Assembly: GCA_002414225.1 (NCBI GenBank)
Contig: DHYV01000040.1
Span: forward strand, 49,656-113,655
Source of the DNA: Desulfobulbaceae bacterium UBA5121
Lineage (GTDB): Bacteria > Desulfobacterota > Desulfobulbia > Desulfobulbales > UBA5123
Length of the DNA: 64,000 nucleotides
Direction: 5' to 3'
The notes beneath the pieces are model-generated. The model searched no databases. It worked only from the letters and a program-made list of their open reading frames with translations, and was not told the origin of the DNA. Of this stretch, positions 9,494-28,202 are shown in pieces. The position numbers and the translations under genes are program-made. Numbering within the stretch: position 1 is the first letter of the stretch; the number at the start of each line of letters is the position of its first letter.

Positions 9494-9646
9494 CCGGCGG
9501 GGCCGCGTTCTGTTGCGGCCGTTGTCGCCGACGGCCGGGAAGCGAATTTTCGCTGCATGCCCGTACCGGAAATAGAGTAAGATATCCCACGTGATTGCCG
9601 GACCGGATCGGTTCGGAACCCTAATCATGGCAACGGGAGGAATGAG

Positions 9647-10429: not shown

Positions 10430-10553
10430 CGGCTGGGGTCGTCGTTGTTCCCGGCGCCACGTCCGGTGTAAATCTTTAAAAAAAATAAAAAATTCCGGCC
10501 ACCAGGGCGGTCTGCCCCAGCCGGAAGCTCTCCTCAAACGGAGCCATAGCCAC

Positions 10554-12077: not shown

Positions 12078-12100
12078 CGAGCCGTTCGGTTCGCAGCCCC

Positions 12101-12137
12101 GGCATCGGCAAGCGCTTGCCGATGCCCTGTTCTTTCG
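12101..12137 (+). terminator. stem-loop terminator after leuA
   Basis: ggcatcggcaagcgcttgccgatgcc is a near-perfect palindrome, followed by ctgttctttc. Confidence 0.5.
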
Positions 12138-12221
12138 GAGCGGCCACCCGCTTAAGGACGACAATTTGTTTTATGTAATTCGGTCAACACAAAATTAGAC
12201 ACCAAGAGGAATCAACGAACC

Positions 12222-13250
12222 ATGAGTAAGTCAACCCGTACCTTTAACGTTGCCGTTGCCGGCGCCACCGGTGCCGTGGGCGGCGCCATGCTCGATGTCC
12301 TGGAACGGCGGAATTTCCCTGTCAAGGAACTGCGCCTGCTCGCCTCGGAGCGCTCGGTGGGCAAGAAACTTACCTTTCGCGGCCAGGAGATCGCTGTTCA
12401 GCAGTTGACCAAGGACGCCTTCACCGGCATCGACGTGGCGCTCTTTTCGGCCGGCGGCGACCGGTCGCTCGAGTTCGCGCCGGCCGCCGCCGCCGCGGGC
12501 GCGGTGGTGGTGGACAATTCCAGCGCCTTCCGCATGGACCCCGAGATCCCCCTGGTGGTGCCCGAGGTCAACCCCCACGCCATCGCCCAGTACAAGAAGC
12601 GCGGCATCATCGCCAACCCCAACTGCTCCACCATCCAGATGCTGGTGGCCTTGAAGCCCATCCATGACAAGGTGGGGATCAAGCGCATCGTGGTTTCCAC
12701 CTATCAGGCGGTTTCGGGCACCGGCGCCAAGGCCATCGAGGAACTCAAGCAGCAGGTGCTCGACTACGCCGCCGGCAAGTCCATGGCGCACAAGGTTTAT
12801 CCCCACCAGATCGCCTTCAACTGCCTGCCCCACATCGATTCCTTCCTGGCCAACGGCTATACCAAGGAAGAGATGAAGATGGTCAACGAAACCCGCAAGA
12901 TGTTCGAGGACAACTCCATCGGGGTCACCGCCACCACGGTGCGGGTGCCGGTTTTCTACGGCCATTCCGAGTCGGTGAACATCGAAACCAAGGAGAAGAT
13001 CAGCAGTTCCGAGGTCAAGGCACTCCTTGCCAACGCACCCGGGGTGAAGCTGGTTGACGACCCTGCCAACGCCAAGTACCCCCTCGCCACCGACTGCGCC
13101 GGCAACTTCGAAACCCTGGTGGGGCGCATCCGCGAGGACGAGTCCATCGCCAACGGCATCAACCTCTGGGTGGTGGCCGACAACATCCTCAAGGGTGCGG
13201 CCCTCAACGCGGTGCAGATCGCCGAGATCCTCATCGACAAGTATATCTAG
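12222..13250 (+). CDS. asd: aspartate-semialdehyde dehydrogenase
   Basis: VAGATGAVG Rossmann motif and active-site NPNCSTIQM. 342 aa. Confidence 0.95.
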   Translation: MSKSTRTFNVAVAGATGAVGGAMLDVLERRNFPVKELRLLASERSVGKKLTFRGQEIAVQQLTKDAFTGIDVALFSAGGDRSLEFAPAAAAAGAVVVDNSSAFRMDPEIPLVVPEVNPHAIAQYKKRGIIANPNCSTIQMLVALKPIHDKVGIKRIVVSTYQAVSGTGAKAIEELKQQVLDYAAGKSMAHKVYPHQIAFNCLPHIDSFLANGYTKEEMKMVNETRKMFEDNSIGVTATTVRVPVFYGHSESVNIETKEKISSSEVKALLANAPGVKLVDDPANAKYPLATDCAGNFETLVGRIREDESIANGINLWVVADNILKGAALNAVQIAEILIDKYI

Positions 13251-13994: not shown

Positions 13995-14528
13995 ATGACC
14001 GCCTACGAGCCCTTTGTGGCGCCCAAGACCAGTGAGCGGATTGCCGTCTATCCCGGCACTTTTGATCCCATCACCCGAGGCCACCTCGACATCATCCATC
14101 GTGCCCTCAGCCTCTTCGACCGGGTGATCGTGGCGGTGGGGATCAACGCCGCCAAGCAGCCGCTTTTTTCCCTGGAGGAGCGGATGGCGATGATCCGCGA
14201 CTGCTTTCCGGCCGACGAAAAGCGCATCGAGGTGGACGCGGTGACCGGCCTGCTGGTGGACTACGCCTACACCAAGGGGGCGCGGGCCATTATCCGGGGG
14301 TTGCGGGCGGTTTCCGACTTTGACTACGAGTTCCAGCTGGCGCTCATGAACCGGCGCATCGAGCGGGAGGTTGAAACCGTTTTTCTGATGACCGGCTTCC
14401 GCTGGATCTACATCAGTTCGAGCATTATCAAGGACGCGGCGCGGCACGGCGGCGACGTGGGCGGCCTGGTGCCGGACCATGTCTGTGAAAGGCTGCGGGA
14501 GCGGTTCATGATGCCCGGCAACGGTTGA
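13995..14528 (+). CDS. coaD: pantetheine-phosphate adenylyltransferase
   Basis: VYPGTFDPITRGHLD (T/HxGH motif) and ISSSIIKD. 177 aa. Confidence 0.9.
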   Translation: MTAYEPFVAPKTSERIAVYPGTFDPITRGHLDIIHRALSLFDRVIVAVGINAAKQPLFSLEERMAMIRDCFPADEKRIEVDAVTGLLVDYAYTKGARAIIRGLRAVSDFDYEFQLALMNRRIEREVETVFLMTGFRWIYISSSIIKDAARHGGDVGGLVPDHVCERLRERFMMPGNG

Positions 14529-14568
14529 AGAGGACCGGGGTGCGATGCGTTGCAGCGGGGGAAGGGAG

Positions 14569-14973
14569 ATGAACCGGCGTGAGGTGCTCGGCGAGGGCTG
14601 GAAATGGCTGCGCCTGGCCGTTGCCGCAGCGCTCCTCTACCCCCTGCTGCGTTTCCTCGGTTTCAAGGTGCCCCGGAAACCCCGCCGGGTGGAGGTGCAC
14701 AAGTCGCTCAAGGTCACCGGTTTCATCATCGAACACGAGTTCATCATCTTCGACGGGGCCAAGGGGCCCTGGGCCGTCTCCCGCAAGTGTACCCACCTGG
14801 GCTGCCGGCTCAACTACCGGGAAAAGGAGCACATCCTCCTCTGTCCCTGTCACCAGAGCCGTTTCTCCCCTCAGGGCCGGCGCCTGGCCGGCCCGGCACA
14901 GCGCAATCTTCCCACCTTTCCGGTGGCCGCCCTTCACGAAGGCGAGGACAAGGGCTACGTGGTAACCCTCTGA
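14569..14973 (+). CDS. Rieske [2Fe-2S] protein (small, membrane-anchored)
   Basis: CTHLGCRLNY and CPCHQSRF cluster-binding boxes. Start chosen at MNRREVLGEG (twin-Arg-like NRRE, RBS gggggaagggag). The track start at 14545 is also possible. Confidence 0.8.
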   Translation: MNRREVLGEGWKWLRLAVAAALLYPLLRFLGFKVPRKPRRVEVHKSLKVTGFIIEHEFIIFDGAKGPWAVSRKCTHLGCRLNYREKEHILLCPCHQSRFSPQGRRLAGPAQRNLPTFPVAALHEGEDKGYVVTL

Positions 14974-14983
14974 AAGGCGAACA

Positions 14984-15856
14984 ATGGCTGTTCTGTGGCG
15001 AGGCAAAGAGATCGATGTGAAGGCTGCCTTCAGCGGGGTGGCCTGGGGCGAGAAAAGCCTGGTGGCGCTCTACGTCTCGGTTCTCTCCGGCATCGTCGTC
15101 GCCCTCCAGTACAACCCGGCCGAGCCGCTCTATTCCGCCACCATCATGGATCTCCTGGTGCCCTTCGGCGCCTTCTGGCGGTCGCTCCACTTCTACTCAA
15201 GCCAGCTCTTCTTCCTGTTCATCGTCTGTCACCTGCTCGCCGTCCTTCTCGACCGCTTCCCGGTGACCATGTCCTTCAGGAAGTGGCTGCCGCTGGTCTG
15301 CTCGCTGCCGGTGGTGGTGCTGGTGCTTTTCACCGGTTATGTGCTGCGGGGGGATGTCACCGGCGAGATGGCCGGCTTCATCGCCGAAAATATCGTCCTC
15401 TCCGTGCCGGTGGCTGGCCGCTGGCTGAACAACCTGCTCTTTGCCATCAGCAGTGACGGCATGCAGCGGGTCTACGTCAACCACCTCATCGGCCTCGGCG
15501 TGCTCTGGGGGGTGCTCTCCTGGGACCACCTGCGCCGTTACCGGGTGTCGTGGCGCCAGCATGGTGCCCTGCTGGTGGCGTTGCTGGTCGCCTGTCTGGC
15601 GTTGACCGCGCCCATGGAAACCGAACACCTGGGGGTGTTCCGCATCGCCGGCCCCTGGTTCTTCCTCGGCGTTCAGGAACTGCTCCGTTATGTGCCGCCG
15701 GTCTGGGCCGGGGTGGTCTTTCCCCTTACCCTGGTCGTTGCCCTCTGCCTCCTCGGTTCGCCGGAGAGGCGGACCGCCGACCGGGCAGTGCGTTTTTCGC
15801 TGCTCTGGCTGGGGACGTATGCTATCCTTAGCCTGGTAATGATTCTCGGCCACTGA
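14984..15856 (+). CDS. cytochrome b (b6-like N-terminal part fused to a subunit-IV-like C-terminal part)
   Basis: Helix-B pair LHFYSSQLFFLFIVCH has 13 residues between the His. Helix-D pair RVYVNHLIGLGVLWGVLSWDH has 14 between. The C-terminal GPWFFLGVQELLRYVP aligns with the PEWY/Qo region. Confidence 0.75.
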   Translation: MAVLWRGKEIDVKAAFSGVAWGEKSLVALYVSVLSGIVVALQYNPAEPLYSATIMDLLVPFGAFWRSLHFYSSQLFFLFIVCHLLAVLLDRFPVTMSFRKWLPLVCSLPVVVLVLFTGYVLRGDVTGEMAGFIAENIVLSVPVAGRWLNNLLFAISSDGMQRVYVNHLIGLGVLWGVLSWDHLRRYRVSWRQHGALLVALLVACLALTAPMETEHLGVFRIAGPWFFLGVQELLRYVPPVWAGVVFPLTLVVALCLLGSPERRTADRAVRFSLLWLGTYAILSLVMILGH

Positions 15857-16031
15857 TGCCGGATACGCCCCAGTCCCGGGGCCACCGACCGTTTTCCCCG
15901 GGCAGTGGGTGAGCTGGAAGGAGAGTCCCGTCGGTGTCCGTTCCGCATTCCTTATACTCGTCTGCCCGAGACGCGTCCTGCGCCGGCCGTTGCCTTCTGG
16001 GCGGTGTGCGCTTCCTGCCTGGAGGCTTTCG

Positions 16032-17450
16032 ATGAAATTGGGATCTCTCTCCGGCCCACGCCTCTGCTTGTTGCTGCTGGTCCTGGTCCTGGCCTTTGGC
16101 GTCCGTTTTCTCTACCTCTCCGAGGCCGTCTATGCCAATCCCCTGAGAGGAGACGCGTCACAGTATTTCGCATCGGCCTACAACTTGTTTCACAACGGTG
16201 TCTACTCTTCGCAGATTTCCGGCCTGTCGAGTGACAAAGGTCTCCGGTCCGACGCATCCCGCGGCCCCGGGTATCCGTTTTTTCTGATGCCCTTTCTCAC
16301 CGTTTCGCAAGATCTGCCCGCATTTTTCAACAACGTTTTCCTCGTCCAGGCGGTCATCGGCACCTTGTCGGTGGGATTGACCTTTTGGCTGGGCTATATG
16401 ATCTTCGGCGCCCCCGGGGGGCTTTTCGCCGCCCTGCTCCTGGCGCTTACCCCCCAGGTGATCGCCCTGGAGGGGAACCTTCTTTCGGAAACCCTGTTCA
16501 CCTTTTCTCTGCTCGTTGCGGTCGTCGTGTTGGTATCGGAAATAAGGGAGGCGTCGATGGTCAAGCTTTTCGGCGCCGGTTTTTTCTTTGGCGTAGCCGC
16601 CTTGGTGCGTCTTTCGGCTCTGCCCATCGGCCCTTTTGTCGGCCTGTTCAGGCTGGCCAGGCATGCCAGCGGCAAGTCCCTGTTCCGTTGGGCCCGCTTC
16701 AGATGCTATCTGTTGTTCCTGGTCGGTTTCCTAACCGCCGTGGGGCCGTTTTTCGTCCGTAACACCGTGGTGCTGGGGAGCCCACTGCCCAAGAGTTCAA
16801 AGGCCTGGGAGAATTTCCTCATGGGCAGCTATCCTGATTACATTTACAAGAATGGGGGGACGTACGGCTACCCTTACCGCGATGACCCGGCGTATCCACG
16901 GATGTTCGAGGACAAGGACGAGGCGTGGCGGATCATCGGAGAGCGATTCCGGGCCGAGCCCTGGAAGTATCTGCGCTGGTATCTTTTGGGTAAGATTGTC
17001 GGTATGTGGCAATGGGATCAGGGGGTTGGCGGCACCGGCGATGTGTATGTTTTCCCCCTGGAGTCTTACCCCTTTCAGTCCGATGCGGTTCTTGCCGTTA
17101 TCCATTTGGTGATGCGAATCCTTCATGTGCCGCTTCTCCTTGCCGCCCTTGCCGGCGTGGTGTATTTCCTCCGCTCTCTCAGGAGTTCCTGGCGGCGTGA
17201 CCGCGAGGATGGCCCAGGTACGGCGCGCAGGCAGGCAATGCTCCTGTTTTTTGGAATGCTTCTTTTGCAGACCGTGCTCCTGATCATTCTCTTCCCGGTT
17301 CCTCGGCTCATGGTTCCCTTTACCCCCTACATGCTGCTCTTTGCCTTTTTCGGCCTGCAGCAGACAGGCCGGCTCCTTGGCGACTGGCGGTCGCTGCGGC
17401 GAGAACGGCGCCAACCTGTGTCGTGGCAGAGAAACGGCGCATTGCATTGA
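16032..17450 (+). CDS. glycosyltransferase family 39 (ArnT/PMT-like, polyprenyl-phosphate-sugar dependent), polytopic membrane protein
   Basis: Start at MKLGSLSGPRLCLLLLVLVLAFGVRFLYL. Many TM helices. The early RGDASQYF..A and GPGYPFF loop is typical of GT39/PMT_2 proteins. Confidence 0.7.
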   Translation: MKLGSLSGPRLCLLLLVLVLAFGVRFLYLSEAVYANPLRGDASQYFASAYNLFHNGVYSSQISGLSSDKGLRSDASRGPGYPFFLMPFLTVSQDLPAFFNNVFLVQAVIGTLSVGLTFWLGYMIFGAPGGLFAALLLALTPQVIALEGNLLSETLFTFSLLVAVVVLVSEIREASMVKLFGAGFFFGVAALVRLSALPIGPFVGLFRLARHASGKSLFRWARFRCYLLFLVGFLTAVGPFFVRNTVVLGSPLPKSSKAWENFLMGSYPDYIYKNGGTYGYPYRDDPAYPRMFEDKDEAWRIIGERFRAEPWKYLRWYLLGKIVGMWQWDQGVGGTGDVYVFPLESYPFQSDAVLAVIHLVMRILHVPLLLAALAGVVYFLRSLRSSWRRDREDGPGTARRQAMLLFFGMLLLQTVLLIILFPVPRLMVPFTPYMLLFAFFGLQQTGRLLGDWRSLRRERRQPVSWQRNGALH

Positions 17451-17465
17451 ATCGACTCGGAGTCC

Positions 17466-19031
17466 ATGATCGCGTCGCAGAACACCGTCGTCCTCGTGAA
17501 TCCCAATCTGGTGGTGCAACGAAGCGACCTCTTCACCACCGGCATCGTCTACATGCCCATCGGTCTTGCCTCGTTCGCGGCGGTGGTGCGGGAGGCAGGG
17601 TTTTCCTGCCAGGTGGTCGATGCCTTTGGCGAGGCTCCCAATCAGTGCTGGCGCGCGGACGGCTTCCTTTATCGCGGGCTCACCTTTGCCCAGGTGACCG
17701 AACGGATTAACGATGGGGTACTGGCGGTGTGCCTCTCGGCCATGAACCTCACCCATCACGGCTCCCTGGTCGGCCTGCTGCGGGCCATCCGTCAGGGCCG
17801 ACCGCGGGCCAGGCTGGTGGTGCTGGAGAACAGCCAGGCGGTGACCGCCTACAACCTCCATGCCGTGCGGCGGGAACTCTTCGCGGCCGGGGCGGACTAC
17901 ATTCTCCGTGGTGAACCGGAAGAGCGTGGCCTGGCGTTGTTCGCGGCCATGGCGGCGGGCCGGCCGGTGGCCATCCCGGGCGTGGAAGGGGGGGGCGGGC
18001 CGGCAGGCGAGGAGGGGAGCGAGACCTCGGCCGCGCCGCTCCCCAAGATCGGCGCTCTGGACCGTCTGCCCTTTCCGGCCTGGGAGTTCTTCCCGCTCGA
18101 GAACTACTGGCGGCTCGGCTACGCCCATGGGCCGCTTTCATCCCGCCGCTACCTGCCGCTCCTCACCTCGCGGGGCTGTCCTTACCGCTGCCGCTTCTGC
18201 GTGGTACCATCCACCAACGATGGCGCCTGGCGGGCCCGGTCGGCCAGTGACGTGGTGGACGAGATGGAGGTCGCCCTGCACCGCTTCGGGGTGACGGAGT
18301 TTCATGTCGAGGATCTCAACCCCACGGTGAGCGAGGAGCGCATCAAGAAACTCTGCCACGAGATCCTGCGGCGCGGGCTCAAGGTGGCGTTCAAGTTCTG
18401 CGCCGGCACCAAGATCGAAACCATCCGTTCCGAGGAAACCATCGAGCTGCTGGCCCGGGCGGGCTGCAGGTATCTCTCCATGTCGCCGGAGAGCGGCTCG
18501 GCAAGGGTGCTCGCCCTGATGCACAAGCCCTTTGACGCGGGTCACGCCCTGCGCATGCTCCGGGCCATGAATCGTGCCGGCATCCGTTCCCAGGCATGTT
18601 TCGTCCTCGGGTTTCCCGGAGAAACCGACGAAGACCGCTCCGAGACCGAGGCCATGGTCCACCAGCTGGTCCGAGAGGGGGTGGACGAGATCGCGCTCTT
18701 CGTGGCAAGCCCGGTTCCGGGTTCCGCCATTGCCGCCGAGTTTGCCGGCCAGTGCGATGACTGCTCGGCGCTCACCTTTTCGCCTGCCTGGCGGCAGGAC
18801 TATGCCAGGCTCAACGCTTTCCGCCTGGGGCTCTACCGGAAGTTTCTGGGCTGGAAACTTCGCTACCACTTCTTTTCCGTGCTGCGCCAGGCGGCGAATT
18901 TTCTCCGCCGTCGTTTCGAGACCAAGATGGAAATGGTACCCTTCCGCGCCCTCCATACCCTGCTGCTCGACCGCGGCATCATCGGCACTCGTCTCGGTGG
19001 TCAGCTGCCCCCAGGGGGCGGGGAGGGCTGA
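17466..19031 (+). CDS. B12-binding-domain radical SAM protein (class B)
   Basis: The N-terminal Rossmann-like VVLVNPN...YMPIGLASFAAVV resembles cobalamin-binding domains. Radical SAM motif LTSRGCPYRCRFC. 521 aa. Confidence 0.8.
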   Translation: MIASQNTVVLVNPNLVVQRSDLFTTGIVYMPIGLASFAAVVREAGFSCQVVDAFGEAPNQCWRADGFLYRGLTFAQVTERINDGVLAVCLSAMNLTHHGSLVGLLRAIRQGRPRARLVVLENSQAVTAYNLHAVRRELFAAGADYILRGEPEERGLALFAAMAAGRPVAIPGVEGGGGPAGEEGSETSAAPLPKIGALDRLPFPAWEFFPLENYWRLGYAHGPLSSRRYLPLLTSRGCPYRCRFCVVPSTNDGAWRARSASDVVDEMEVALHRFGVTEFHVEDLNPTVSEERIKKLCHEILRRGLKVAFKFCAGTKIETIRSEETIELLARAGCRYLSMSPESGSARVLALMHKPFDAGHALRMLRAMNRAGIRSQACFVLGFPGETDEDRSETEAMVHQLVREGVDEIALFVASPVPGSAIAAEFAGQCDDCSALTFSPAWRQDYARLNAFRLGLYRKFLGWKLRYHFFSVLRQAANFLRRRFETKMEMVPFRALHTLLLDRGIIGTRLGGQLPPGGGEG

Positions 19032-19975
19032 TGGCCGGGACTCCGCCGACCGCTCTTTTCGAGGAGCCCGCCTGCCCCGTCTGTGGCGGGCGGGAGTACC
19101 GGGTATTGCGGCCGCCATGCTACCCCGCGGGGCTCACCGAGGAGGATGTTCGCGCCGTCTATACCTCGTCGAGTGACGCCAAGCTCCAGGACCAGCTGGT
19201 CGGCTGCCGTGGCTGTGGGCTCGTTTATCTCTCGCCGCGGTTGAAGAGTGAGTTCATCCTCCGTGGCTATGGCGACAACGTCGATCCCACCTTCATTCGG
19301 CAGAACCCCTTCCGGATCAGAACCTTCACCAAGGCGTTGACCAGGCTGCGTCACCGGTTCGGCATCGAGCCGGGCCGTATTTCCGGCCGGGTGCTCGACA
19401 TCGGCTGTGCCGGCGGCGCCTTCCCCAAGGCCGCCGCCGACCTCGGTTTTCCGGTGACCGGTATCGAACCCAGCCGTTGGCTCTGTGAGCAGGGGCGCAT
19501 GGCCTACGGCCTTGATCTCCGCCCCGGGGTGCTTGAAGACTACTCCTGGCAGCCCGGCGAGTTCTCCCTGGTCACGCTATGGGACGTGGTGGAGCACCTC
19601 ACCGATCCGGCCGTGACCCTGCGGGCCATCCGGCCGATCCTGGCCGACGACGGTTATCTGGTGATCAACTATCCCGACATCAACAGCCTGGCGAGCCGGT
19701 TGCTGGGCAGCCGATGGCCCATGCTGCTCAACGTCCACCTCTTCTACTTCACCCGGCGGACCATCACCCTGTTTCTCGAAAAGCAAGGCTTTGCCGTGCT
19801 GGAGATCACCCCCTTCTTTCAGACCCTGGCCCTGGACTATGCCCTGGGACGGGCCGCGGCCTATTTCCCGCCGGTGCGGCTTTTGCAAAAGGTGGCGCTC
19901 TGGTTGGGCGATTCCAGCTTGCCCTTGACCTACAACATCGGCCAGAATCTGGTGGTGGCCAGGAAGAGGGTGTGA
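19031..19975 (+). CDS. class I SAM-dependent methyltransferase with N-terminal zinc ribbon
   Basis: CPVCGG...CRGCG cysteine pairs and SAM motif I VLDIGCAGGAF. Its start overlaps the upstream stop (ATGA). Confidence 0.8.
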   Translation: MAGTPPTALFEEPACPVCGGREYRVLRPPCYPAGLTEEDVRAVYTSSSDAKLQDQLVGCRGCGLVYLSPRLKSEFILRGYGDNVDPTFIRQNPFRIRTFTKALTRLRHRFGIEPGRISGRVLDIGCAGGAFPKAAADLGFPVTGIEPSRWLCEQGRMAYGLDLRPGVLEDYSWQPGEFSLVTLWDVVEHLTDPAVTLRAIRPILADDGYLVINYPDINSLASRLLGSRWPMLLNVHLFYFTRRTITLFLEKQGFAVLEITPFFQTLALDYALGRAAAYFPPVRLLQKVALWLGDSSLPLTYNIGQNLVVARKRV

Positions 19976-20631
19976 TGGAGGGGATCGCGGCGATCATCTT
20001 TGACATGGACGGCGTGCTGCTGCTCTCAAGCCGTATCCATGCCCGGGCATTTGCCCGAGTGTACCAGGAGCTGGGGGTAAAGGGGCCGCCCTACCGGGAG
20101 ATCGCCGGCATGCGTACCGACGAAGCCCTGCGCTACGTGCTGGCCCGACATGGCACGCCCGCCGGCGCCGGGCAGCTCGCCGCCCTGGTGGCCCGCAAGC
20201 GGGATCTGGCCCATGCGCTGCTCGCCAGCGAGCCGCCGCTGGCGCCGGACTGTCGCGCCCAGCTCGCCAGACTGCGCGGCCGTTTTCGCCTCGCCCTGGC
20301 CTCCTCGGCCTCGGAGCGCAACGTGGCACTCTTCCTTGCGGCAAGCGGGGCAGCCGAACTCTTTGACGTGGTCATCGCCGGTGACGCCGTGGCCAGGGCC
20401 AAGCCCGAGCCCGACATTTACCTGGCCGCCCTTAAGGCCCTGGGCTGTCCGCCCGCCGGGGCGCTGGTGGTGGAGGATGCGGTGAACGGCGTCGTCGCGG
20501 CCCGTCGGGCCGGCATACGGGTGGTGGGGATTTCCTCCACCCATGCCGCCGAGGAACTCCTTGCCGCCGGCGCCTGGCAGGTGGCTGCTTCCCTCGCGGA
20601 CCTGGTACGGTTGGTGTTGTCCCATGGCTAG
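19975..20631 (+). CDS. HAD-superfamily hydrolase (beta-phosphoglucomutase/phosphatase subfamily)
   Basis: Start at MEGIAAIIFDMDGVLL (DxD nucleophile motif), with VVEDAVNGVVAARRAG near the C-terminus. TGATG overlap with the upstream gene. Confidence 0.8.
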   Translation: MEGIAAIIFDMDGVLLLSSRIHARAFARVYQELGVKGPPYREIAGMRTDEALRYVLARHGTPAGAGQLAALVARKRDLAHALLASEPPLAPDCRAQLARLRGRFRLALASSASERNVALFLAASGAAELFDVVIAGDAVARAKPEPDIYLAALKALGCPPAGALVVEDAVNGVVAARRAGIRVVGISSTHAAEELLAAGAWQVAASLADLVRLVLSHG

Positions 20632-21424
20632 AATTATTCCCATCACGCAGCTGCAGGGCGGTTGTTTCGCCCCCGACCCGTGCCGATGGACTGCGGTGAT
20701 CCCGGCCGCCGGCCGGGGGAGCCGGCTCGGCTACCGCCACCCCAAGATCCTCTATCCCGTGGCGGGCCGGCCGATTCTGGACTGGCTGGTGGAGCTGCTC
20801 TCGCCGTTTTGCTCGCGCCTGGTCTTTGTCGTCTCCCCGGAGGGCAGGGAACAGGTAGCGGCCCACCTTGAACGGCTCGGCACCGGGGTCTGCCTGTTTC
20901 TCACCCAGGAGGAGCCCACCGGCATGGGGGACGCGGTGCTGCTCGCCGAGGCTGCGGTCACCACCCCCAACACCCTGGTGATCTGGGGCGACCAGGTGGG
21001 CATCGCCCAGGCCACCGTTCTCGCCTGCATGAAGGCCCATGCGCGCTCCCCGGCGCCGCTGCTGACCCTGCCGACGGTGATCAGGGAGCGGCCGTACATC
21101 AGTATCGAGAGGGACGGGGAGGGCAGGATCACCCGTATCGGCCAGCGCCGGGAGGAGGCGATCCCCCTTGCCCGCGGAGAAAACGACTGCGGCCTCTTTT
21201 GTTTTGCCTCCCATGTCCTTTTTGCCGCCCTGCGAACGGCGAAGCGGGAGGGGCTGGGTGTTGGTGCCGCCACCGGCGAGTTCAACCTCCTGCCCATCAT
21301 TCCGATGCTTGACGGCGAAGAGGGGCGGGTGATCACCGTGCGCCTCGCCAACCATGAGGAGGCCATCGGGGTCAACACTCAGGAAGACGCGCAACGGCTC
21401 GCGGAACTGTTAGGGAAGAGATAA
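20624..21424 (+). CDS. nucleotidyltransferase (NTP_transferase fold; sugar-/acid-phosphate nucleotidylyltransferase)
   Basis: Start at MARIIPI. Signature VIPAAGRGSRLG. 266 aa. Overlaps the HAD gene by 8 nt. Confidence 0.75.
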   Translation: MARIIPITQLQGGCFAPDPCRWTAVIPAAGRGSRLGYRHPKILYPVAGRPILDWLVELLSPFCSRLVFVVSPEGREQVAAHLERLGTGVCLFLTQEEPTGMGDAVLLAEAAVTTPNTLVIWGDQVGIAQATVLACMKAHARSPAPLLTLPTVIRERPYISIERDGEGRITRIGQRREEAIPLARGENDCGLFCFASHVLFAALRTAKREGLGVGAATGEFNLLPIIPMLDGEEGRVITVRLANHEEAIGVNTQEDAQRLAELLGKR

Positions 21425-23418
21425 TGGCTGCCGAAAGCTTGAAAGTAGTGGTTTTTTCCGGGGGGAGGGGTACCGGCGAGATCTGTCACGCCCTGCTCAA
21501 ACATCCTCAGATCTCACTCACCGTCCTGGTCAACGCCTATGACGATGGGCTTTCGACCGGGCGCTTGCGGGCCTTTATCCCCGGCATGCTGGGGCCTTCG
21601 GACGTCCGCAAGAACATCGCCCGGTTCATGGAATGCGCCGACAGCTGCCAGCGAGCCTTGCAGCGGCTGGTGGAGTACCGCCTTCCCGACCCCTTTACCT
21701 ATGATCAGGGGCTGGCAATTCTCGAGGCCATGGTCCGCAACCGTCCGCCCGAGCTGGCACCGCTCACCGAGTGGTACCGCGAACTCAACTTCCGTCAATT
21801 CGAGGCCATGGCCGGCTACGCCAGGGCCTTTCTGGACTATGCCGGCGAGCGGGCGGCCGCCGGCACGCGGTTCGACTTCGCCGACTGCTCCATCGGCAAC
21901 ATCCTCTTCTCGGGCTGCTACCTCGCCTGCGGCCAGGACTTCAACCGCACCGTGGCGGCGTTCAGCGCCTTCTGTCGCAGCCGGGCCCGGGTGCTCAACA
22001 TCACCTGCGGGGAAAATCTGGTCTTGGTGGGTCTCAAGGAGGGAGGGCAGATCCTCGCCAACGAGGCGGAACTGGTTTCACCGCAGGACTTCTCGCAGGT
22101 CAACGATATCTATCTCCTGGCGCGTTACCTCTCCAAAGAGGAACTGGCCCGGCTCCGCGAGGCCGAGTCCTGCGCGGCACGCGCTTCCTTCTTGGCGGGC
22201 CTGAGCGTGACCCCGCAGCTCGACGAGGCGGCCGGTGAGGCCCTGACCAGTGCCGACATCATCATCTACGGGCCCGGCACCCAGCACTCTTCCCTTTTCC
22301 CCTCGTATCTCACCCGAGGGGTGGCGGAGGCCATTGCCGGCAACGCCAACGCCGAGAAGATCTTCGTCTCCAATATCCAGAAGGATCATGAAATCCAGGG
22401 CGAAACCGCCAACAGCCTGATCCGCAAACTGCTCTTCTTTCTCAACCGCAAGGGCGAGGTGAGCTTTCCCCATCAGCGGCTGGTGACCACCTTTTTCCTC
22501 CAGTTCCCCAAGGATGGGAGCGCGGCGCCCGAGCGCTATGTGACCTTTGACCGGGACGAGTTTCCCTCGGTGATGGGCAAGGTGGTGCTGGCCGACTGGG
22601 AGGCGCGGCAGGGGGTGCATCTCGGCGGCCGGGTGCTCGACGAACTGCTCAGCCTCGTCAACCTGCGTTGGGAGCGGCAACTGCGGCCCTTCCACTACAT
22701 GGTTTCCATCGTGGTGCCGGCCTTGAACGAGGTGGCCACCGTTGCCGCGGTGTTGGAAGAACTGAAGCTCCTCGACTTCCAGCATCTCGGTATCGGCAAG
22801 GAGATTATCGTGGTGGACGGCGGCTCCGACGACGGCACCTACGAGGCGGCCACGGCGGTGCCGGACGTCAAGGTCTATCGGCTTGCCGGCCGGCGGGGAC
22901 GGGGGGCGGCGTTGCGCCATGGCGTCGACAAGGCGAGCGGCAACATCATTGCCTTTTTCCCGAGCGACGGCGAGTATGCGGTCGGCGATCTCCGGTCGGT
23001 GGTCGCCCCGGTGGTCAACAACGATTTCCCGGCGGTGTTCGGGAGCCGCGCCTTCAAGTGCGTGAGTCTCTCCGACCGGCTGCACACCATCTACCAGGGC
23101 AATCGCGTGGGCTATCTGTTGAGCAAGTACGGAGGCATGCTGATCAGCATCGTGGGCCTCCTGCTCTACAACCGCTATGTCAACGACGCCCTCACCGGGG
23201 TCAAGGCCTTTGACGCCGGGCTGCTGAAGGGGCTCAGGCTGCGCGCCACCGGGGTGGAGTTGGAAACCGAGCTGGTGGCCCGGCTCTCCCAGGCCGGGGT
23301 CTTTATTCTGGAGGTGCCGGTCGATTTCTATCCCCGGACCCGCCGGCAGGGGAAGAAGATCCGCGCCAAGGACGGTTTCGCGGCCCTGTGGAACCTGTTC
23401 CGGTGCCGCTTCAAGTGA
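21424..23418 (+). CDS. fusion protein: N-terminal CofD/YvcK-family (UPF0052) domain + C-terminal family-2 glycosyltransferase domain
   Basis: N-terminal VVFSGGRGTGEI, NAYDDGLSTGRLR and IIYGPGTQHSSLFPSYL match the three CofD/YvcK-family boxes. C-terminal VSIVVPALNE, IIVVDGGSDDGT and FFPSDGEY are GT2 motifs. TAATG overlap with the upstream gene. Confidence 0.75.
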   Translation: MAAESLKVVVFSGGRGTGEICHALLKHPQISLTVLVNAYDDGLSTGRLRAFIPGMLGPSDVRKNIARFMECADSCQRALQRLVEYRLPDPFTYDQGLAILEAMVRNRPPELAPLTEWYRELNFRQFEAMAGYARAFLDYAGERAAAGTRFDFADCSIGNILFSGCYLACGQDFNRTVAAFSAFCRSRARVLNITCGENLVLVGLKEGGQILANEAELVSPQDFSQVNDIYLLARYLSKEELARLREAESCAARASFLAGLSVTPQLDEAAGEALTSADIIIYGPGTQHSSLFPSYLTRGVAEAIAGNANAEKIFVSNIQKDHEIQGETANSLIRKLLFFLNRKGEVSFPHQRLVTTFFLQFPKDGSAAPERYVTFDRDEFPSVMGKVVLADWEARQGVHLGGRVLDELLSLVNLRWERQLRPFHYMVSIVVPALNEVATVAAVLEELKLLDFQHLGIGKEIIVVDGGSDDGTYEAATAVPDVKVYRLAGRRGRGAALRHGVDKASGNIIAFFPSDGEYAVGDLRSVVAPVVNNDFPAVFGSRAFKCVSLSDRLHTIYQGNRVGYLLSKYGGMLISIVGLLLYNRYVNDALTGVKAFDAGLLKGLRLRATGVELETELVARLSQAGVFILEVPVDFYPRTRRQGKKIRAKDGFAALWNLFRCRFK

Positions 23419-23435
23419 GAGAGGAGAGGAAGAGG

Positions 23436-24161
23436 ATGGCCAAGATCTCCATCGTGATTCCGGCGTATAACGAAGAGGGCTTCATCGGCCGGCTCCTGGC
23501 GCGGATCAACCAGGTTGATACCGAGGGAGCGGGCTTTGCGAAGGAGGTCATCGTGGTGGATGACGGTTCCACCGACGCCACGGCCGCCATCGTCGCGGAC
23601 TTTGGCGGCGTGACCCTGATCCGTCAGGCGAACCGGGGCAAGGGGGCGGCGGTTCAGCGCGGGGTCAGCGAGGCCACCGGTGACTTCATCCTGGTGCAGG
23701 ACGCCGACCTTGAATACGATCCCATGGACTACCTGCCCCTGCTCAAGATCCTGGCGGCGAGTGAGGCGCCGGTAGCGGTGTACGGCAGCCGTATCCTGGG
23801 GCAGCTCCGGGACCGGGGCTGGTCGCTGCTGCCGGGGCGTCACCCCCGGCAGGGCTTCGGTCCCTATGTGGCCGGGCTGCTGCTGACCCTCTGGACCTTT
23901 TTTCTCTACGGTCGTTGGATCTCCGATACCCTTACCGCCTACAAGATCTATCCCACGTCGCTGTTGAAAAGCTTCAGGGTCAAGACCAGCGGCTTTGAAA
24001 CCGACCACGAACTTACCGCCAAGCTCATCCGCGCCGGGGTGCGGATCCGCGAGGTTCCCATTCGCTATGAGCCGCGCAGCGCGGCGGAAGGGAAGAAGAT
24101 CGGCGCCAGGGACGGCTTTGTCGCCGTGTGGACCCTGTTGCGGTTCCGTTTCCGATCGTAA
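23436..24161 (+). CDS. family-2 glycosyltransferase (polyprenyl-phosphate hexose synthase-like, soluble/peripheral)
   Basis: MAKISIVIPAYNEE, VIVVDDGSTD and VQDADLEYDP (DxD). 241 aa. RBS gagaggagaggaagagg. Confidence 0.8.
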   Translation: MAKISIVIPAYNEEGFIGRLLARINQVDTEGAGFAKEVIVVDDGSTDATAAIVADFGGVTLIRQANRGKGAAVQRGVSEATGDFILVQDADLEYDPMDYLPLLKILAASEAPVAVYGSRILGQLRDRGWSLLPGRHPRQGFGPYVAGLLLTLWTFFLYGRWISDTLTAYKIYPTSLLKSFRVKTSGFETDHELTAKLIRAGVRIREVPIRYEPRSAAEGKKIGARDGFVAVWTLLRFRFRS

Positions 24162-24203
24162 GTGCACGGACCGTTCGCCGTGGCCCCGCGGGGGAAGCGG
24201 TTT

Positions 24204-25631
24204 CTAGGCAGCGGGGCCTGCCACCGGCAGGAAGAGGGTGAAGGTGGAGCCGACGCCAGGAGTGCTTTCCACCTCGGTGCGGCCGCCGTGGGAGTGGGTC
24301 ACCGCCTCGACCAGGCTCAATCCCAGCCCCAGGCCGCGCTGACTGCGGCTCCGGTCGCCGCGGTAGAGCCGATCGAAGATGTGGGGCAGATCCTGTTCGG
24401 CGATGCCGGCGCCGTTATCGCTGACCTCGACGGCGATCTCCTCCTCCTGCCGCCGGGCGGTGACCGAAACCTGGCCGCCGACCGGGGTGTACTTGATGGC
24501 GTTGTCGAGGAGGTTGGCGACGACCTGGCGCATCCGGTCGCTGTCCGCCCTCACGGAGAGCGTCGGCGGCACCTGGCAGAGAACGGTGATCTCCTTGTCG
24601 TCCGCCACGTACTGGTAGAGATCCACCACCTCGTTCAACAGTTCCGCCACGTCAATCTCCTTGATCCGCAGCCGCATCACCCCTGTCTCCGCCTCGGAGA
24701 TGTCCATCAGGGTCGAGAGCATGGTGGTGAGCCGCTCCGACTCCTCGCCACAGTCCATCAGCGCCTCACGCAGGGCCTCGGGGTCGGACTCGGCCTGCAG
24801 GGCGGTTTCGATGGTCGCCCGCAGCCGGGTTGCCGGGGTGCGCAGGTCATGGGCAACGTTGTCCAGGGCGTCACGCATGCCGGTGATCAGGCTGCTGATT
24901 TTCTCCAGCATGCCGTTGAAGAGATGGACGAGGTCGTTTAATTCGTCGCCGGTGCGCGGGTCCGGCACCCGGGCGTCCAGCCGGCCGGTGTCGATGCTCC
25001 GTACGGTGTGGATCAGTTCGCGGATGGGGCGCAAGGCCCTGGAGGCGAGGAAAAAACCGCCACAGAAACCGAAGATGACCGCCGGCAGCAGGATGAAGGC
25101 AAATTTTTTGCGAAAGTTAGCCCGGTGCCGTTCACGGAGGGCGGCATCCTTGCCTACCTGGAGGATGATGCCGCCGGGCAGCACGCGGCTGGCGAACTCC
25201 GCGCCCTGCACCCGGTCCGTGGCCGGCAGTTCTCCCCAGGAAACGGCCCCGGGCTCCAGACTGGTGGCCAAGTCGAAGTGGATGACGTCGGCGCGTTCCC
25301 AGCCCAGCGGCAGGGTCAGCACCAGGGTGTTGCCCCTGTGATTGAGAACCCGCACGATGAACCCGTTGTGGTGATTGCTCAACTCCTCCTGATGGATGGC
25401 GGCGATCAGTGCCGCCTCCCCTAGCTGCTCGCCTTGGAGGCTGTACTCCTGGAGTTTTGCCAGGACGATGTCACGGTCTTCTTCGAGAAAGGTCAAGCGA
25501 AGCGGAATGAAGACCAGGGCGAAGAGAACCACGGCGCTCGAGATGAAGACCGAAGAGTACCAGAGGGCGAGCCGGAAATTGAGGGAACGCAGCAGGCGTT
25601 TAATCGGCCTTGATGACATAGCCAACGCCAC
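24204..25631 (-). CDS. sensor histidine kinase (CusS/heavy-metal-sensor-like: 2 TM, HAMP, HisKA, HATPase_c)
   Basis: H-box NVAHDLRTPATRL, LLDNAIKYTP, SDNGAGI and GLGLGLSLV. Overlaps the upstream regulator gene. Confidence 0.85.
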   Translation of the reverse strand: MALAMSSRPIKRLLRSLNFRLALWYSSVFISSAVVLFALVFIPLRLTFLEEDRDIVLAKLQEYSLQGEQLGEAALIAAIHQEELSNHHNGFIVRVLNHRGNTLVLTLPLGWERADVIHFDLATSLEPGAVSWGELPATDRVQGAEFASRVLPGGIILQVGKDAALRERHRANFRKKFAFILLPAVIFGFCGGFFLASRALRPIRELIHTVRSIDTGRLDARVPDPRTGDELNDLVHLFNGMLEKISSLITGMRDALDNVAHDLRTPATRLRATIETALQAESDPEALREALMDCGEESERLTTMLSTLMDISEAETGVMRLRIKEIDVAELLNEVVDLYQYVADDKEITVLCQVPPTLSVRADSDRMRQVVANLLDNAIKYTPVGGQVSVTARRQEEEIAVEVSDNGAGIAEQDLPHIFDRLYRGDRSRSQRGLGLGLSLVEAVTHSHGGRTEVESTPGVGSTFTLFLPVAGPAA

Positions 25632-26274
25632 GGATGGTACGGATCAGTTTATGGTCGTAGTTGCGGTCGATCTTGTTGCGCAGCCGGCAGACCAGGACGT
25701 CCATGACGTTGGTCTGCGGCGTGAAGTTGTAGTGCCAGACATGTTCGATGATCATCGCCTTGGAAAGCACCCGGCCCTGGTTGCGCATCAGGTAGGCGAG
25801 CAGGGCGAATTCCCTGGGCTGCAGGTCGATGGGCTGGCCGTCGCGGGTCACCTCGCGCTTGAGGATGTCGAGCGCGAGGTCGCCGACGGTGAGGGTGGTT
25901 GCCTCGCCGCTTTTGGCAGACCGGCGGATGAGCGCCTGGACCCTGGCCAGGAGTTCGGGAAACGAAAAGGGTTTGACCAGGTAGTCGTCGCCGCCCGCCT
26001 GGAGGCCCTTGACCCGGTCTTCCACCGAGCGCTTGGCGCTCAGGATGATCACCGGCGTGTCGACGTGCCGCCGCCGCAGCTCGTCGAGCAGGGCGAGGCC
26101 GTCGAGTCCGGGGAGCATGATGTCGAGAATTGCCGCGTCATAGGGGGCCTGCAGGGCGAGTTGCAGCCCCTTGGGGCCGTTGTCTGCCTGATGCACGGTA
26201 TAGCCTTCCTGTCTGAAACCGGTGGCGATGTATGAGGCGATCTTGATGTCGTCCTCCACTACGAGAATGTTCAT
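25600..26274 (-). CDS. OmpR-family response regulator (CusR-like)
   Basis: MNILVVEDD, ILDIMLPGLDG and the winged-helix C-terminus IRTIRGVGYVIK. 224 aa. Confidence 0.9.
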   Translation of the reverse strand: MNILVVEDDIKIASYIATGFRQEGYTVHQADNGPKGLQLALQAPYDAAILDIMLPGLDGLALLDELRRRHVDTPVIILSAKRSVEDRVKGLQAGGDDYLVKPFSFPELLARVQALIRRSAKSGEATTLTVGDLALDILKREVTRDGQPIDLQPREFALLAYLMRNQGRVLSKAMIIEHVWHYNFTPQTNVMDVLVCRLRNKIDRNYDHKLIRTIRGVGYVIKAD

Positions 26275-26523
26275 GGGGATCTCCCGTTGGCGTCATGTCG
26301 GCAGAGATCGGGGATTGTCGGCGGCGCCTCAGCAGTGTATGGTGGTTGTTTTGCCGGACGGGGCGATCAACCCGTCACGGTCGTGGGCCTGTAAAGTGCG
26401 TGCGTTTCCTGCGGAATGTCCCTCCCAGGCATGTGGCGTGCTCCTTGCCCCGCTGCAGGTAGCCCTGCCAGGTGGGAACGGTTATCAAATGAAAAAACTA
26501 ACCTTATAAAATACGGTTGTTTC

Positions 26524-27276
26524 ATGGATAATGCAAGAGGGAAGCATGAGTCGTTTTCTGTGGCGGCGTGGTTTTGGATTACCGCCGGCCTTCTGGTGGC
26601 CACCCTGCTGTTTTTCGAGTTCACCAATCTGGACCTGCAATTACAGCGCCTTCTCTACGATCCGCATACCCGCACCTGGCTGGTTGACGGCAACGCGCCG
26701 CTGCCCCGGCTCTTCTTCTACAGCGGGGTGAAATGGGTGCTGGCCATTGGCGGGGCGGTGCTCTTCTTCCTCCTGCTGGCCGGTTTTCGCGTGGCGCGGC
26801 TGCGCCCCTGGCGGCGGGTATTCTTCTTCATGATCCTCTGCATGGGCATGGTGCCGCTCCTGGTGGCCGGAGCCAAGAACGTTACCAACGTCTTCTGTCC
26901 TTCGGATCTGGCGCTGTTTAACGGCAACAAGCCCTACGTGCGCCTCTTCGAGCCCATGCCGGCCGGTATTGACGGGTGCGGCTGCTGTTTCCCGGCTGGC
27001 CATGCCTCGGGCGGTTTTGCGCTGATGGCTCTCTATTTTCTCTCCGCCCGCCGGCGTCGGCGGGCTCTTGGCCTTGCGGCGGGGATCGGACTTGGCTGGA
27101 TAATGGGGATCTACCAGATGGCCAAAGGGGCGCATTTTCTCTCCCACACCATCGTCACCATGGAACTGGCCTGGATGCTTATCCTACTTTTTTACGCGCT
27201 TCTGTACCGGGGCTGGCGAACGCCATTGGCGCGGGCGGTCTGTACCCCGGCGGACGGGGTGACGGAAGGCCGCTAG
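26524..27276 (+). CDS. PAP2-family membrane phosphatase
   Basis: Start at MDNARGK. Motifs KNVTNVFCPSD, CFPAGHASGGF and SHTIVT, consistent with the KxxxxxxRP / PSGH / SRxxxxxH pattern in degenerate form. Multiple TM helices. Confidence 0.7.
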   Translation: MDNARGKHESFSVAAWFWITAGLLVATLLFFEFTNLDLQLQRLLYDPHTRTWLVDGNAPLPRLFFYSGVKWVLAIGGAVLFFLLLAGFRVARLRPWRRVFFFMILCMGMVPLLVAGAKNVTNVFCPSDLALFNGNKPYVRLFEPMPAGIDGCGCCFPAGHASGGFALMALYFLSARRRRRALGLAAGIGLGWIMGIYQMAKGAHFLSHTIVTMELAWMLILLFYALLYRGWRTPLARAVCTPADGVTEGR

Positions 27277-27284
27277 GGCGGGGG

Positions 27285-28202
27285 TTATCTTCCGTTCTCG
27301 CGCAATACGTGGGAGAAGGCCGAATCAATGGTAGGGTGCTGGAAGGCGAAACCGTGTCCGACGAGTTTGGCGGGCACCACCCGCTGGCCTTCGAGGAGTA
27401 CGGAGCCGAATTCGCCCAGGGCGAGCCGGACCAGGAAGGCGGGAACGGCGGGAAGCAGCGGCCGGTGCAGGAGGCGGGCGAGCGAGCGGCTCATCTCGCG
27501 GTTGGTGACCGGCTGGGGCGCGGTACAGTTGACCGGGCCGTTGATGGCCGGGGTCTGAATGAGGAAGAGAAAGGCGCGGACCAGATCGTCCAGGTGGATC
27601 CAGGAAAAGTACTGGCTGCCGCGGCCGAGCGGGCTGCCGAGCCCCCAGCGGAAGGCGGTGAGCATGCGGCTCAGGGCCCCGCCGTCCGGGCCGATGACCA
27701 CCCCGATCCGGCAGGGGATCACCCGCACCCCGTACTGTTCGGCGCCGCGGGCCGCCGCCTCCCATTCGCGGGTAAGGACGGCCAGGAAATCGTCGCCGTT
27801 GGCTCCGGCTTCGTCGATTGTCTCCCCTCCCCGCAGGCCGTAGTAGCCCACCGCCGAGCCATTGAGCAGGGTGGTGGGCCGGTCGCGGCGGGTGGCGAGT
27901 CCGGCGACGATGTTGCGGGTGGTTTCGATGCGGCTGGTCCGCAGCAGTTCCTTGCTCTCTTCGTTCCAGCGTCTGAAGATGGACGCCCCGGCCAGGTTGA
28001 TGACCACCTCATGGCTGGCCAGGGCCTCCTGCCAGTCACCGGGGCGCACCGGATCGCCGACCAGATAGGAAAGGGCAGGGGAGAAGTGATGCCGCTGTGG
28101 CTGGCGGCGGGTCAGCACGGTCACGGTGTGACCGGCGGCGAGCAACTGGTCGGTTAGTGCCCGGCCGAGGAAGCCGGTACCGCCGGAGATGAAGACGTGC
28201 AT
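27285..28202 (-). CDS. TIGR01777/YfcH-type NAD-dependent epimerase-like protein (SDR fold + DUF1731)
   Basis: MHVFISGGTGFLGRAL Rossmann motif. 305 aa. The C-terminal region is typical of YfcH-like proteins. Confidence 0.75.
   Translation of the reverse strand: MHVFISGGTGFLGRALTDQLLAAGHTVTVLTRRQPQRHHFSPALSYLVGDPVRPGDWQEALASHEVVINLAGASIFRRWNEESKELLRTSRIETTRNIVAGLATRRDRPTTLLNGSAVGYYGLRGGETIDEAGANGDDFLAVLTREWEAAARGAEQYGVRVIPCRIGVVIGPDGGALSRMLTAFRWGLGSPLGRGSQYFSWIHLDDLVRAFLFLIQTPAINGPVNCTAPQPVTNREMSRSLARLLHRPLLPAVPAFLVRLALGEFGSVLLEGQRVVPAKLVGHGFAFQHPTIDSAFSHVLRENGR

Follow-up and report, generated by a model that had tools for sequence, protein, structure and literature searches.

We analysed a 64,000-nucleotide (nt) stretch of the genome of Desulfobulbaceae bacterium UBA5121 (assembly GCA_002414225.1, contig DHYV01000040.1, forward-strand positions 49,656 to 113,655), hereafter called the window and numbered from its first letter, in which a single open reading frame (ORF) of 664 amino acids (aa) joins a CofD-superfamily domain to a family 2 glycosyltransferase (GT2) domain. 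This fusion gene lies in a co-directional plus-strand run (16032-24161) that encodes, in order, a GT-C glycosyltransferase of the PMT_2 type, a radical S-adenosylmethionine (SAM) enzyme, a methyltransferase, a HAD hydrolase, a nucleotidyltransferase (NT), the fusion protein and a stand-alone GT2, here called GT2b (Table 1). From the radical SAM gene to the fusion gene, consecutive genes overlap or abut by 1-8 nt. The NT runs for 266 aa from an ATG at 20624 that lies 8 nt inside the HAD gene, and its TAA stop overlaps the ATG of the fusion ORF at 21424 (TAATG), just as the initial annotation of this DNA had described. A scan of 14000-27500 found no promoter-like site, and terminator-like sites there were no commoner than in shuffled sequence.

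Table 1. Features of the fusion gene cluster and its immediate neighbours, in window coordinates.
Feature	Position	Strand	Evidence or remark
GT-C glycosyltransferase (ArnT/PMT_2-like), polytopic membrane protein, 472 aa	16032..17450	+	Pfam PMT_2 E 8e-8, 33 bits vs cutoff 26
Class B (B12-binding) radical SAM enzyme, 521 aa	17466..19031	+	Pfam Radical_SAM E 1e-22; weak B12-binding match
SAM-dependent methyltransferase (Methyltransf_23), 314 aa	19031..19975	+	Start overlaps radical SAM stop
HAD-IA hydrolase, beta-phosphoglucomutase/CbbY type, 218 aa	19975..20631	+	Pfam HAD_2 E 3e-25
GlmU-like sugar-1-phosphate NT, 266 aa	20624..21424	+	Pfam NTP_transf_3 E 5e-18, IspD, NTP_transferase
Fusion, N-terminal domain (aa 1-416), assigned to the YvcK/GlmR clade of the CofD superfamily	21424..22671	+	
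Fusion, C-terminal domain (aa 426-664), GT2 (GT-A fold), DPMS/ArnC/GtrB/AglJ type	22699..23418	+	
Stand-alone GT2 (GT2b), 241 aa	23436..24161	+	Paralogue of fused GT2 domain
Convergent two-component system: HAMP/HisKA histidine kinase and OmpR-family response regulator	24204..26274	-	
PAP2-family phosphatase, 250 aa	26524..27276	+	Pfam PAP2 E 3e-15

The fusion protein and its partner enzymes

Both halves of the 664-aa protein were recognized by Pfam: CofD (PF01933) matched residues 8-338 (E 1e-25; 90.8 bits, cutoff 30), and GT2 (PF00535) matched residues 428-588 (E 2e-21). The sequence boxes that the initial annotation had quoted for the two domains were all located (FSGGRGTG, DDGLSTGRLR and YGPGTQHSSLFPS; VVPALNE, VVDGGSDDGT and FFPSDGEY), and their residues were mostly invariant across 28 homologues from different phyla. 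The inter-domain junction (…H399-G-G…DEL…/…PF-H-MVSIVVP…) was also conserved across phyla, and the AlphaFold model of the whole fusion reached a pLDDT of 85 and a pTM of 0.82. Its best 120 database relatives all carried both domains at full length (~650-930 aa, about 47-55% identity), and the fusion ORF was continuous in 82 independently assembled loci. Because both domains are kept together in hundreds of assemblies, the fusion is genuine and not an assembly artefact, and the concern that a frameshift had created it can be laid to rest.

The N-terminal half had been annotated as CofD-like. It is indeed a homologue within PF01933, but it groups with YvcK/GlmR rather than with CofD: a single-sequence search and a family profile gave significant matches to YvcK-type structures only (profile E 8e-28 for YvcK versus 0.54 for Methanosarcina mazei CofD, 3c3d), and Foldseek returned TM scores of 0.80-0.84 for YvcK (0.83, versus 0.62 for CofD). 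The CofD/FbiA model was absent among the NCBIfam matches of the fusion, the best of which was the GAK-system CofD-like family (TIGR04357; 102.9 bits, cutoff 340), and the domain also missed the threshold of the YvcK model (TIGR01826; 70.6 bits, cutoff 196). Sequence and predicted structure thus agree in placing the domain with YvcK/GlmR within the CofD superfamily, apart from true CofD. Because it scores under the curated thresholds of all three CofD-related NCBIfam models, we would place it in a distinct, new clade next to YvcK.

Like YvcK/GlmR (UPF0052; known from B. subtilis, L. monocytogenes and, as CuvA, M. tuberculosis), a family that binds or acts on nucleoside diphosphate (NDP)-sugars (PMC5482804, PMC10128056), the domain has the glycine loop, the DDG-S-GRLR box, the GPG-x3-S motif and the DD pair, and its DDG aligns with that of B. 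halodurans YvcK. Unlike YvcK, which is a stand-alone protein of ~320 aa encoded in a yvcJ-yvcK-whiA operon, it spans ~415 aa, is joined to a GT2 and is always paired with a GlmU-like NT. Most of the ~95 aa by which it exceeds YvcK form a poorly conserved helical insertion (~65-80 aa, at aa ~87-150).

The invariant motif residues of the domain lie elsewhere, at G13, G14, G16, D40, D41, S44, T45, G46, R49, D60, R62, K63, N64 and Y282-GPGTQHSS, so that the glycine loop, D40-D41, D60-x-R-K-N and the GPG-x3-SS motif are all retained; across the family the D40-D41 pair was invariant or nearly so and D60 was invariant. GlmR of Listeria and Bacillus needs the DD pair (D40/D41 in L. monocytogenes, D38/D39 in B. 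subtilis) to act as a uridyltransferase (PMC10128056, PMC13046274). The catalytic metal of FbiA is bound at the GDP beta-phosphate by two aspartates, D45 and D57 (PMC7253369); D40/D41 and D60 sit in N-x-x-D-D … P-x-D motifs and correspond to these FbiA residues by motif, not by a computed alignment. The domain is therefore predicted to possess an intact metal and phosphate site of the YvcK/CofD type. The initial annotation would have counted it against its own proposal if the domain grouped with YvcK-type proteins of regulatory function in a fusion unique to this strain. The grouping was found, but the fusion is widespread (see below) and YvcK/GlmR is now reported to be a catalytic uridyltransferase that is not purely regulatory (PMC10128056, PMC13046274).

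The fused GT2 domain aligned with P. furiosus DPM synthase (5mlz; E 1e-9) over residues 9-243 of 247, and its best NCBIfam match was AglJ. Its structural neighbours in Foldseek were ArnC, GtrB and DPMS, together with the soluble enzymes GpgS and MpgS. In the AlphaFold model, a hydrophobic helix (561-581) is flanked on both sides by low-confidence loops; judged by position, it would lie where DPMS and GtrB carry interface helices. The stand-alone GT2b is 38% identical to the fused domain over its full length. Since the two forms are reciprocally monophyletic across 82 (fused) and 77 (GT2b) sequences and both retain the D…D, DxE and R…GKK motifs, an ancient duplication with retention of both copies is indicated. 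Both are best described as GT2s of the polyprenyl-phosphate-transferase type, with that acceptor a prediction from sequence and model comparisons.

The NT, which the initial annotation had taken to be CofC-like, proved to be of another kind. Its entire sequence could be aligned with the uridylyltransferase half of GlmU (NCBIfam E 6e-24; PDB 9dqf E 9e-17), it bears the GxGxRL…PK signature of sugar-1-phosphate NTs, and no CofC family in Pfam or NCBIfam matched it; we therefore assign it to the sugar-1-phosphate type and not to CofC. It covers GlmU positions ~2-240 only (84 bits against GlmU cutoffs of 367-725), and the acetyltransferase half with its left-handed beta-helix is missing from the 266-aa protein. 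The HAD protein matched the beta-phosphoglucomutase (beta-PGM) family hydrolase model of NCBIfam (E 8e-32), and its best PDB matches were the CbbY xylulose-1,5-bisphosphate phosphatase (E 1.5e-24) followed by beta-PGM. These two nearest relatives act on doubly phosphorylated sugars, and the HAD enzyme is presumed to supply a sugar-1-phosphate. In agreement with the initial annotation, we found no F420 gene: Pfam searches of ~40 of the ~51 window ORFs, and of related loci, returned none of the FO synthase, cofC or cofE families.

A conserved module across phyla

When one genome was scanned for each species, 246 species-representative genomes from about ten phyla proved to encode relatives of the fusion, so that the architecture, which the initial annotation had proposed to look for in other genomes, is widespread; an exhaustive search with the N-terminal domain only returned 331 representatives of 50% identity clusters at E<=1e-30. 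Carriers include Bdellovibrionota, Acidobacteriota (Bryobacterales, Terriglobia and Vicinamibacterales), Magnetococcales, Myxococcota and Alphaproteobacteria, with further examples in Elusimicrobiota, Margulisiibacteriota, Dependentiae and bins labelled Patescibacteria. Bacteriovorax sp. BSW11_IV and Fluviispira multicolorata are among the cultured carriers.

We surveyed gene context by searching six-frame ORFs of 86 loci with the window proteins. In the 57 loci from species representatives that had 3 kb or more of flanking sequence in each direction, the NT was always present (57/57), the second GT2 nearly always (56/57) and the HAD gene usually (52/57); a methyltransferase (32/57) and a radical SAM enzyme (12/57) were accessory. 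The NT lay directly upstream of the fusion in 66 of 75 loci, and GT2b directly downstream in 60 of 76.

The same domains were also found fused in several combinations: HAD·NT (491 aa) in Bryobacterales, NT·CofD-like·GT2 (about 930-960 aa) in several lineages, NT·CofD-like (678 aa, possibly truncated), and, on ten groundwater contigs, HAD·NT·CofD-like·GT2 as one 1148-aa protein collinear with the gene order of the window. The GT2 of this quadruple fusion is of the stand-alone "b" type; a second module-type GT2 was not found in the ~17-kb locus, where the only other GT2 match scored 27 bits. Stand-alone CofD-like proteins of the N-terminal clade exist as well, and the one examined sits in a GT2-NT-CofD-like operon with the NT upstream. 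Because the fusions and this split operon keep both, it is the NT and the CofD-like domain that form the invariant pair, with one GT2 or more to serve, and the coupling of the two that the initial annotation had drawn from a single gene overlap is a general property of the family. Together, these data show a single unit of four or five enzymatic domains that are passed on together, keep their order and in some genomes are fused.

Several individual loci deserve mention. An NT-[CofD-like·GT2]-GT2b set (9145-12724 of locus L063) lies on a 40.9-kb plasmid, pF-183-2, of the cultured Bryobacterales bacterium F-183 (AP025254.1), which suggests horizontal mobility of the module. Four loci from bins labelled Patescibacteria/Moraniibacteriota (L052, L054, L055 and L073) share an almost identical Wzx-methyltransferase-HAD-NT-fusion-GT2b synteny with Bdellovibrionales, which could reflect horizontal transfer or mis-binning; they also hold a conserved 570-aa membrane protein without a Pfam match. 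At the locus closest to ours in the genome scan, from a Myxococcales metagenome-assembled genome (L048, 9702-10965; 56% identity), the match to the CofD-like domain is split between two reading frames, with overlapping pieces, indicating a frameshift that arose through assembly error or in a pseudogene. One example of the quadruple fusion (L088, 5698-9144; protein P0155, groundwater metagenome) has a B12-binding radical SAM and methyltransferase pair and sugar-nucleotide-modifying genes nearby.

In related loci the module is shown to sit in an envelope-glycan context with GT-C partners. In the subset of loci checked by hydrophobicity and Pfam, the polytopic membrane proteins flanking it were YfhO, PMT_2 and DUF2142/PMT proteins (all GT-C), accompanied by Wzx-type flippases and Wzy_C/O-antigen-ligase-like proteins; GT4/GT1 enzymes, sugar epimerases/dehydratases and aminotransferases were frequent neighbours. 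In the window, the first gene of the cluster encodes the GT-C protein, which has eight hydrophobic segments and returned no PDB sequence match; the gene call of identical contigs begins at the same position. It is presumed to use a polyprenyl-phosphate-sugar donor outside the cytoplasm.

Beyond GT2b lie the two-component system and the PAP2 phosphatase, whose best model was "PAP2 family lipid A phosphatase" (NCBIfam PAP2_lipid_A, E 3e-45; 155 bits, under the cutoff of 275). With the ArnT/PMT_2-like gene, they look like a regulated lipid A/lipopolysaccharide (LPS) remodelling locus. The pairing of a two-component system with a lipid A phosphatase is reminiscent of PmrAB-controlled lipid A remodelling.

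Proposed function and alternatives

Like the known systems that pair a polyprenyl-phosphate sugar synthase with a GT-C enzyme (ArnC/ArnT, GtrB/GtrC, CsbB/YfhO, PpgS/Rv3779 and DPMS/PMT), the module has GT2s that resemble DPMS, ArnC, GtrB and AglJ, and it is adjoined by ArnT/PMT_2, YfhO or DUF2142 genes and Wzx-type flippases. Unlike those systems, which use one GT2 and housekeeping NDP-sugars, it combines a HAD and an NT of its own and a fused YvcK/CofD-like domain with two GT2 paralogues of ancient origin, neither of which has a transmembrane helix. With CofC/CofD (FbiD/FbiA) it shares the PF01933 superfamily, the gene order of NT then CofD-like, and metal-binding Asp positions equivalent by motif to FbiA D45/D57 (PMC7253369), whereas the GlmU-like NT, the insignificant similarity to CofD, the absence of an F420 context and the fused glycosyltransferase set it apart. 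By analogy, the module resembles a lipid-carrier glycosylation system with a dedicated donor-synthesis arm, in which the NT/CofD-like pair would follow CofC/CofD logic. A full-text literature search found no paper on a CofD/YvcK-glycosyltransferase fusion, and the YvcK/CofD-like·GT2 architecture appears to be undescribed, as the initial annotation had supposed.

A comparable division of labour occurs in teichoic-acid-like and capsule phosphodiester polymerases, namely the TagF/TarL family and Bcs3 with Bcs1 of H. influenzae type b. There, the NDP-activated alcohol or sugar made by an NT is attached through a phosphodiester by a transferase, with release of nucleoside monophosphate (NMP), a glycosyltransferase works alongside, and a HAD-type phosphatase domain is part of one multi-domain enzyme. 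TagF-like folds are GT-B-type phosphotransferases unrelated to CofD/YvcK, and the evidence on the module implies no polymerase activity.

We tentatively propose, with somewhat less than even confidence, that the fusion is a bifunctional enzyme at the centre of a cytoplasmic assembly line, HAD-NT-YvcK/CofD-like·GT2(-GT2b), that would feed extracytoplasmic envelope glycosylation; the module probably builds an unusual polyprenyl-phosphate-linked sugar donor. From the observed domain identities, conservation, synteny, fusions and structural neighbours, we infer the substrates, the order of steps, the release of NMP and the acceptor as follows. The beta-PGM/CbbY-type HAD enzyme would yield a sugar-1-phosphate from a bisphosphate or 6-phosphate, and the GlmU-like NT would activate this 1-phosphate as an NDP-sugar (NDP-X). 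At the membrane surface, polyprenyl phosphate would be charged with sugar by the DPMS/ArnC-like GT2 domain and its paralogue. The YvcK/CofD-like domain would carry out a metal-dependent phosphoryl or nucleotidyl transfer that uses the NDP-X made by the NT and does not duplicate it; most likely, by CofD-type chemistry, it would move X-phosphate to a hydroxyl of the lipid-linked sugar, releasing NMP and leaving a phosphodiester-decorated donor. This donor would then be flipped and transferred by a GT-C enzyme, in the window the ArnT/PMT_2-like protein, to an envelope acceptor. In this window, LPS or lipid A is the suggested target, given the neighbouring putative lipid A phosphatase and two-component system.

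Phosphodiester formation by the fusion is a plausible hypothesis by analogy, and in its strong form, in which the YvcK/CofD-fold domain would be a new class of soluble glycan-assembly phosphotransferase that places a phosphodiester on the lipid-linked sugar of the fused GT2 with release of NMP, we regard it as possible but lean against it. We weakly favour CofD-type phosphotransfer over a second nucleotidyltransferase of the GlmR type because minimal systems keep the NT and the CofD-like domain for one GT2. Two NDP-handling domains with one GT2, as in the quadruple fusion, argue for serial, non-redundant roles, and F420 synthesis, in which CofD directly uses the labile product of the NT (PMC6450877), offers an analogy for such coupling.

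A number of observations weigh against this proposal. The N-terminal domain groups with YvcK/GlmR and not with CofD, and the only activity reported for that branch is the formation of an NDP-sugar from NTP and a sugar-1-phosphate, not of a phosphodiester; the conserved Asp pair and other sequence features do not appear to separate the two chemistries. Structurally, the fused GT2 is as near to the soluble GpgS and MpgS as to ArnC and DPMS, which leaves polyprenyl phosphate a predicted acceptor, and neither GT2 domain has a hydrophobic segment of transmembrane grade, so a C-terminal transmembrane anchor is lacking. Some members of the DPMS/GtrB/ArnC/AglJ type also have no anchor, so its absence does not bar membership. 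The model leaves the role of the second GT2 unexplained. On the envelope side, the GT-C partner differs in family between loci; with the window GT-C as query it went undetected in most loci, and an iterative hidden Markov model search reached one other locus. The PAP2 gene and the two-component system adjoin the module only in this genome, the latter being missing from nearly all related loci, and lipid A cannot be the general target because some hosts are annotated as Patescibacteria or Dependentiae. We rejected a single conserved GT-C partner, since these partners belong to several families, and lipid A as a universal target, given the genome-specific adjacency and hosts in candidate phyla that lack LPS.

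The N-terminal domain could instead act as GlmR of Listeria and Bacillus is reported to do, making a second or alternative NDP-sugar from NTP and a sugar-1-phosphate and passing it straight to the fused GT2, with the GlmU-like NT serving the other GT2. YvcK/GlmR is its nearest relative in sequence and structure, the catalytic DD pair is conserved (PMC10128056, PMC13046274), and two GT2 paralogues could take two donors. We nevertheless consider this role rather unlikely: the quadruple fusion and the split operon, with one detectable GT2 each, keep the NT and the CofD-like domain as the invariant pair, and a second NT activity would be redundant there. The fusion also falls well short of the YvcK model cutoff, and it has a Ser where the YvcK "LPN" motif has its Asn; provided the residue numbers match, that Asn is one of the positions changed in the Listeria GlmR triple mutant. 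The same loci, retaining both domains with one detectable GT2, weakened a scheme of two parallel NT-GT2 arms, and it was rejected.

A role without chemistry, in which the YvcK-like domain binds an NDP-sugar and allosterically gates or recruits the fused GT2, is unlikely. It would fit the placement of the domain within the YvcK branch and the behaviour of B. subtilis YvcK, which binds UDP-GlcNAc and UDP-Glc and regulates GlmS (PMC5482804, PMC6171935, PMC7525490). However, the residues invariant across phyla are those of the metal and phosphate site (D40, D41, D60, R62, K63 and the glycine loop), to which recent work ascribes GlmR catalysis (PMC10128056, PMC13046274). Nor would a pure sensor be expected to be fused N-terminally to an NT and a HAD in collinear polypeptides.

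The presence of GpgS and MpgS among the top structural and sequence matches of the GT2 domain, and the lack of a transmembrane helix, raise a soluble pathway. GpgS/MpgS-like GT2s would glycosylate a phospho-acid or polyol phosphate, the NT and the CofD-like domain would build a phosphodiester, as a solute or the tail of a cofactor, and the HAD would remove the final phosphate, as in glucosylglycerate, mannosylglycerate and di-myo-inositol-phosphate synthesis. HAD phosphatases do complete such pathways. We consider this quite improbable, since sequence similarity to GpgS is limited to the first ~90 residues while DPMS and AglJ match over the full length, and GT-C enzymes, flippases, O-antigen-ligase-like proteins and other envelope glycosyltransferases predominate in the neighbourhoods; the putative interface position of helix 561-581 also points away from it.

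Finally, F420-type cofactor biosynthesis by a true CofC/CofD pair, for which the CofD family membership of PF01933 and an NT preceding it as cofC precedes cofD could be cited, or a false fusion by frameshift or misassembly, is extremely improbable, and we rejected both: neither CofD/FbiA nor CofC models matched, the profile found no significant similarity to M. mazei CofD, the window ORFs scanned held no pathway gene, and the same continuous ORF recurs in independently assembled loci and hundreds of cluster representatives.

In Firmicutes and mycobacteria, YvcK/GlmR is important to both virulence and the integrity of the cell wall, and its biochemistry is debated; CofD is the only other characterized branch of the fold. 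The N-terminal domain of the fusion would be a third branch, and one with an explicit pathway context: the HAD-NT-CofD-like-GT2 setting, including single polypeptides, makes it an unusually tractable system for the chemistry of this fold on NDP-activated substrates. Because its carriers span about ten phyla, among them predatory Bdellovibrionota and soil Acidobacteriota as well as candidate phyla, the module probably specifies a widespread modification of envelope glycans. If the fusion does install a phosphodiester, it would provide a new enzymatic route to phospho-decorated glycans and add a new fold for such decoration of envelope glycans to the TagF-like, LicD, Stealth and CDP-alcohol transferases. 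Phosphoryl transfer at NDP-X would then be suggested as the ancestral chemistry of the YvcK/CofD superfamily.

Other features of the window

The radical SAM and Methyltransf_23 genes (17466-19975) are translationally coupled and join the module in some lineages only. For the radical SAM protein, the top NCBIfam matches were B12-binding radical SAM methylases, all far under their cutoffs; sub-threshold matches include P-methyltransferases (the Sden_1168 and PhpK families). Genes for a Rieske protein and cytochrome b (14545-15856) immediately precede the GT-C gene in the same orientation and probably form a respiratory operon of their own.

An Rfam search of the window returned one tRNA and nothing else. 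The G+C content drops to 0.55 at 34001-36000, compared with about 0.64 elsewhere, and ~33600-34940 is without a convincing ORF; this stretch adjoins a PIN-PhoH gene (35455-36774, minus strand) and matched no Rfam family. A very long ORF of 1422 aa lies at 59040-63308 on the minus strand. Two genes of the phosphatidylserine-decarboxylase family are present, at 8849-9493 and at 37992-39014 (minus strand). The second overlaps a gene for an Lgt-like membrane protein (36923-38161) and follows a 796-aa ORF without a Pfam match (39033-41423), and 36923-41423 may be a lipid head-group modification operon.

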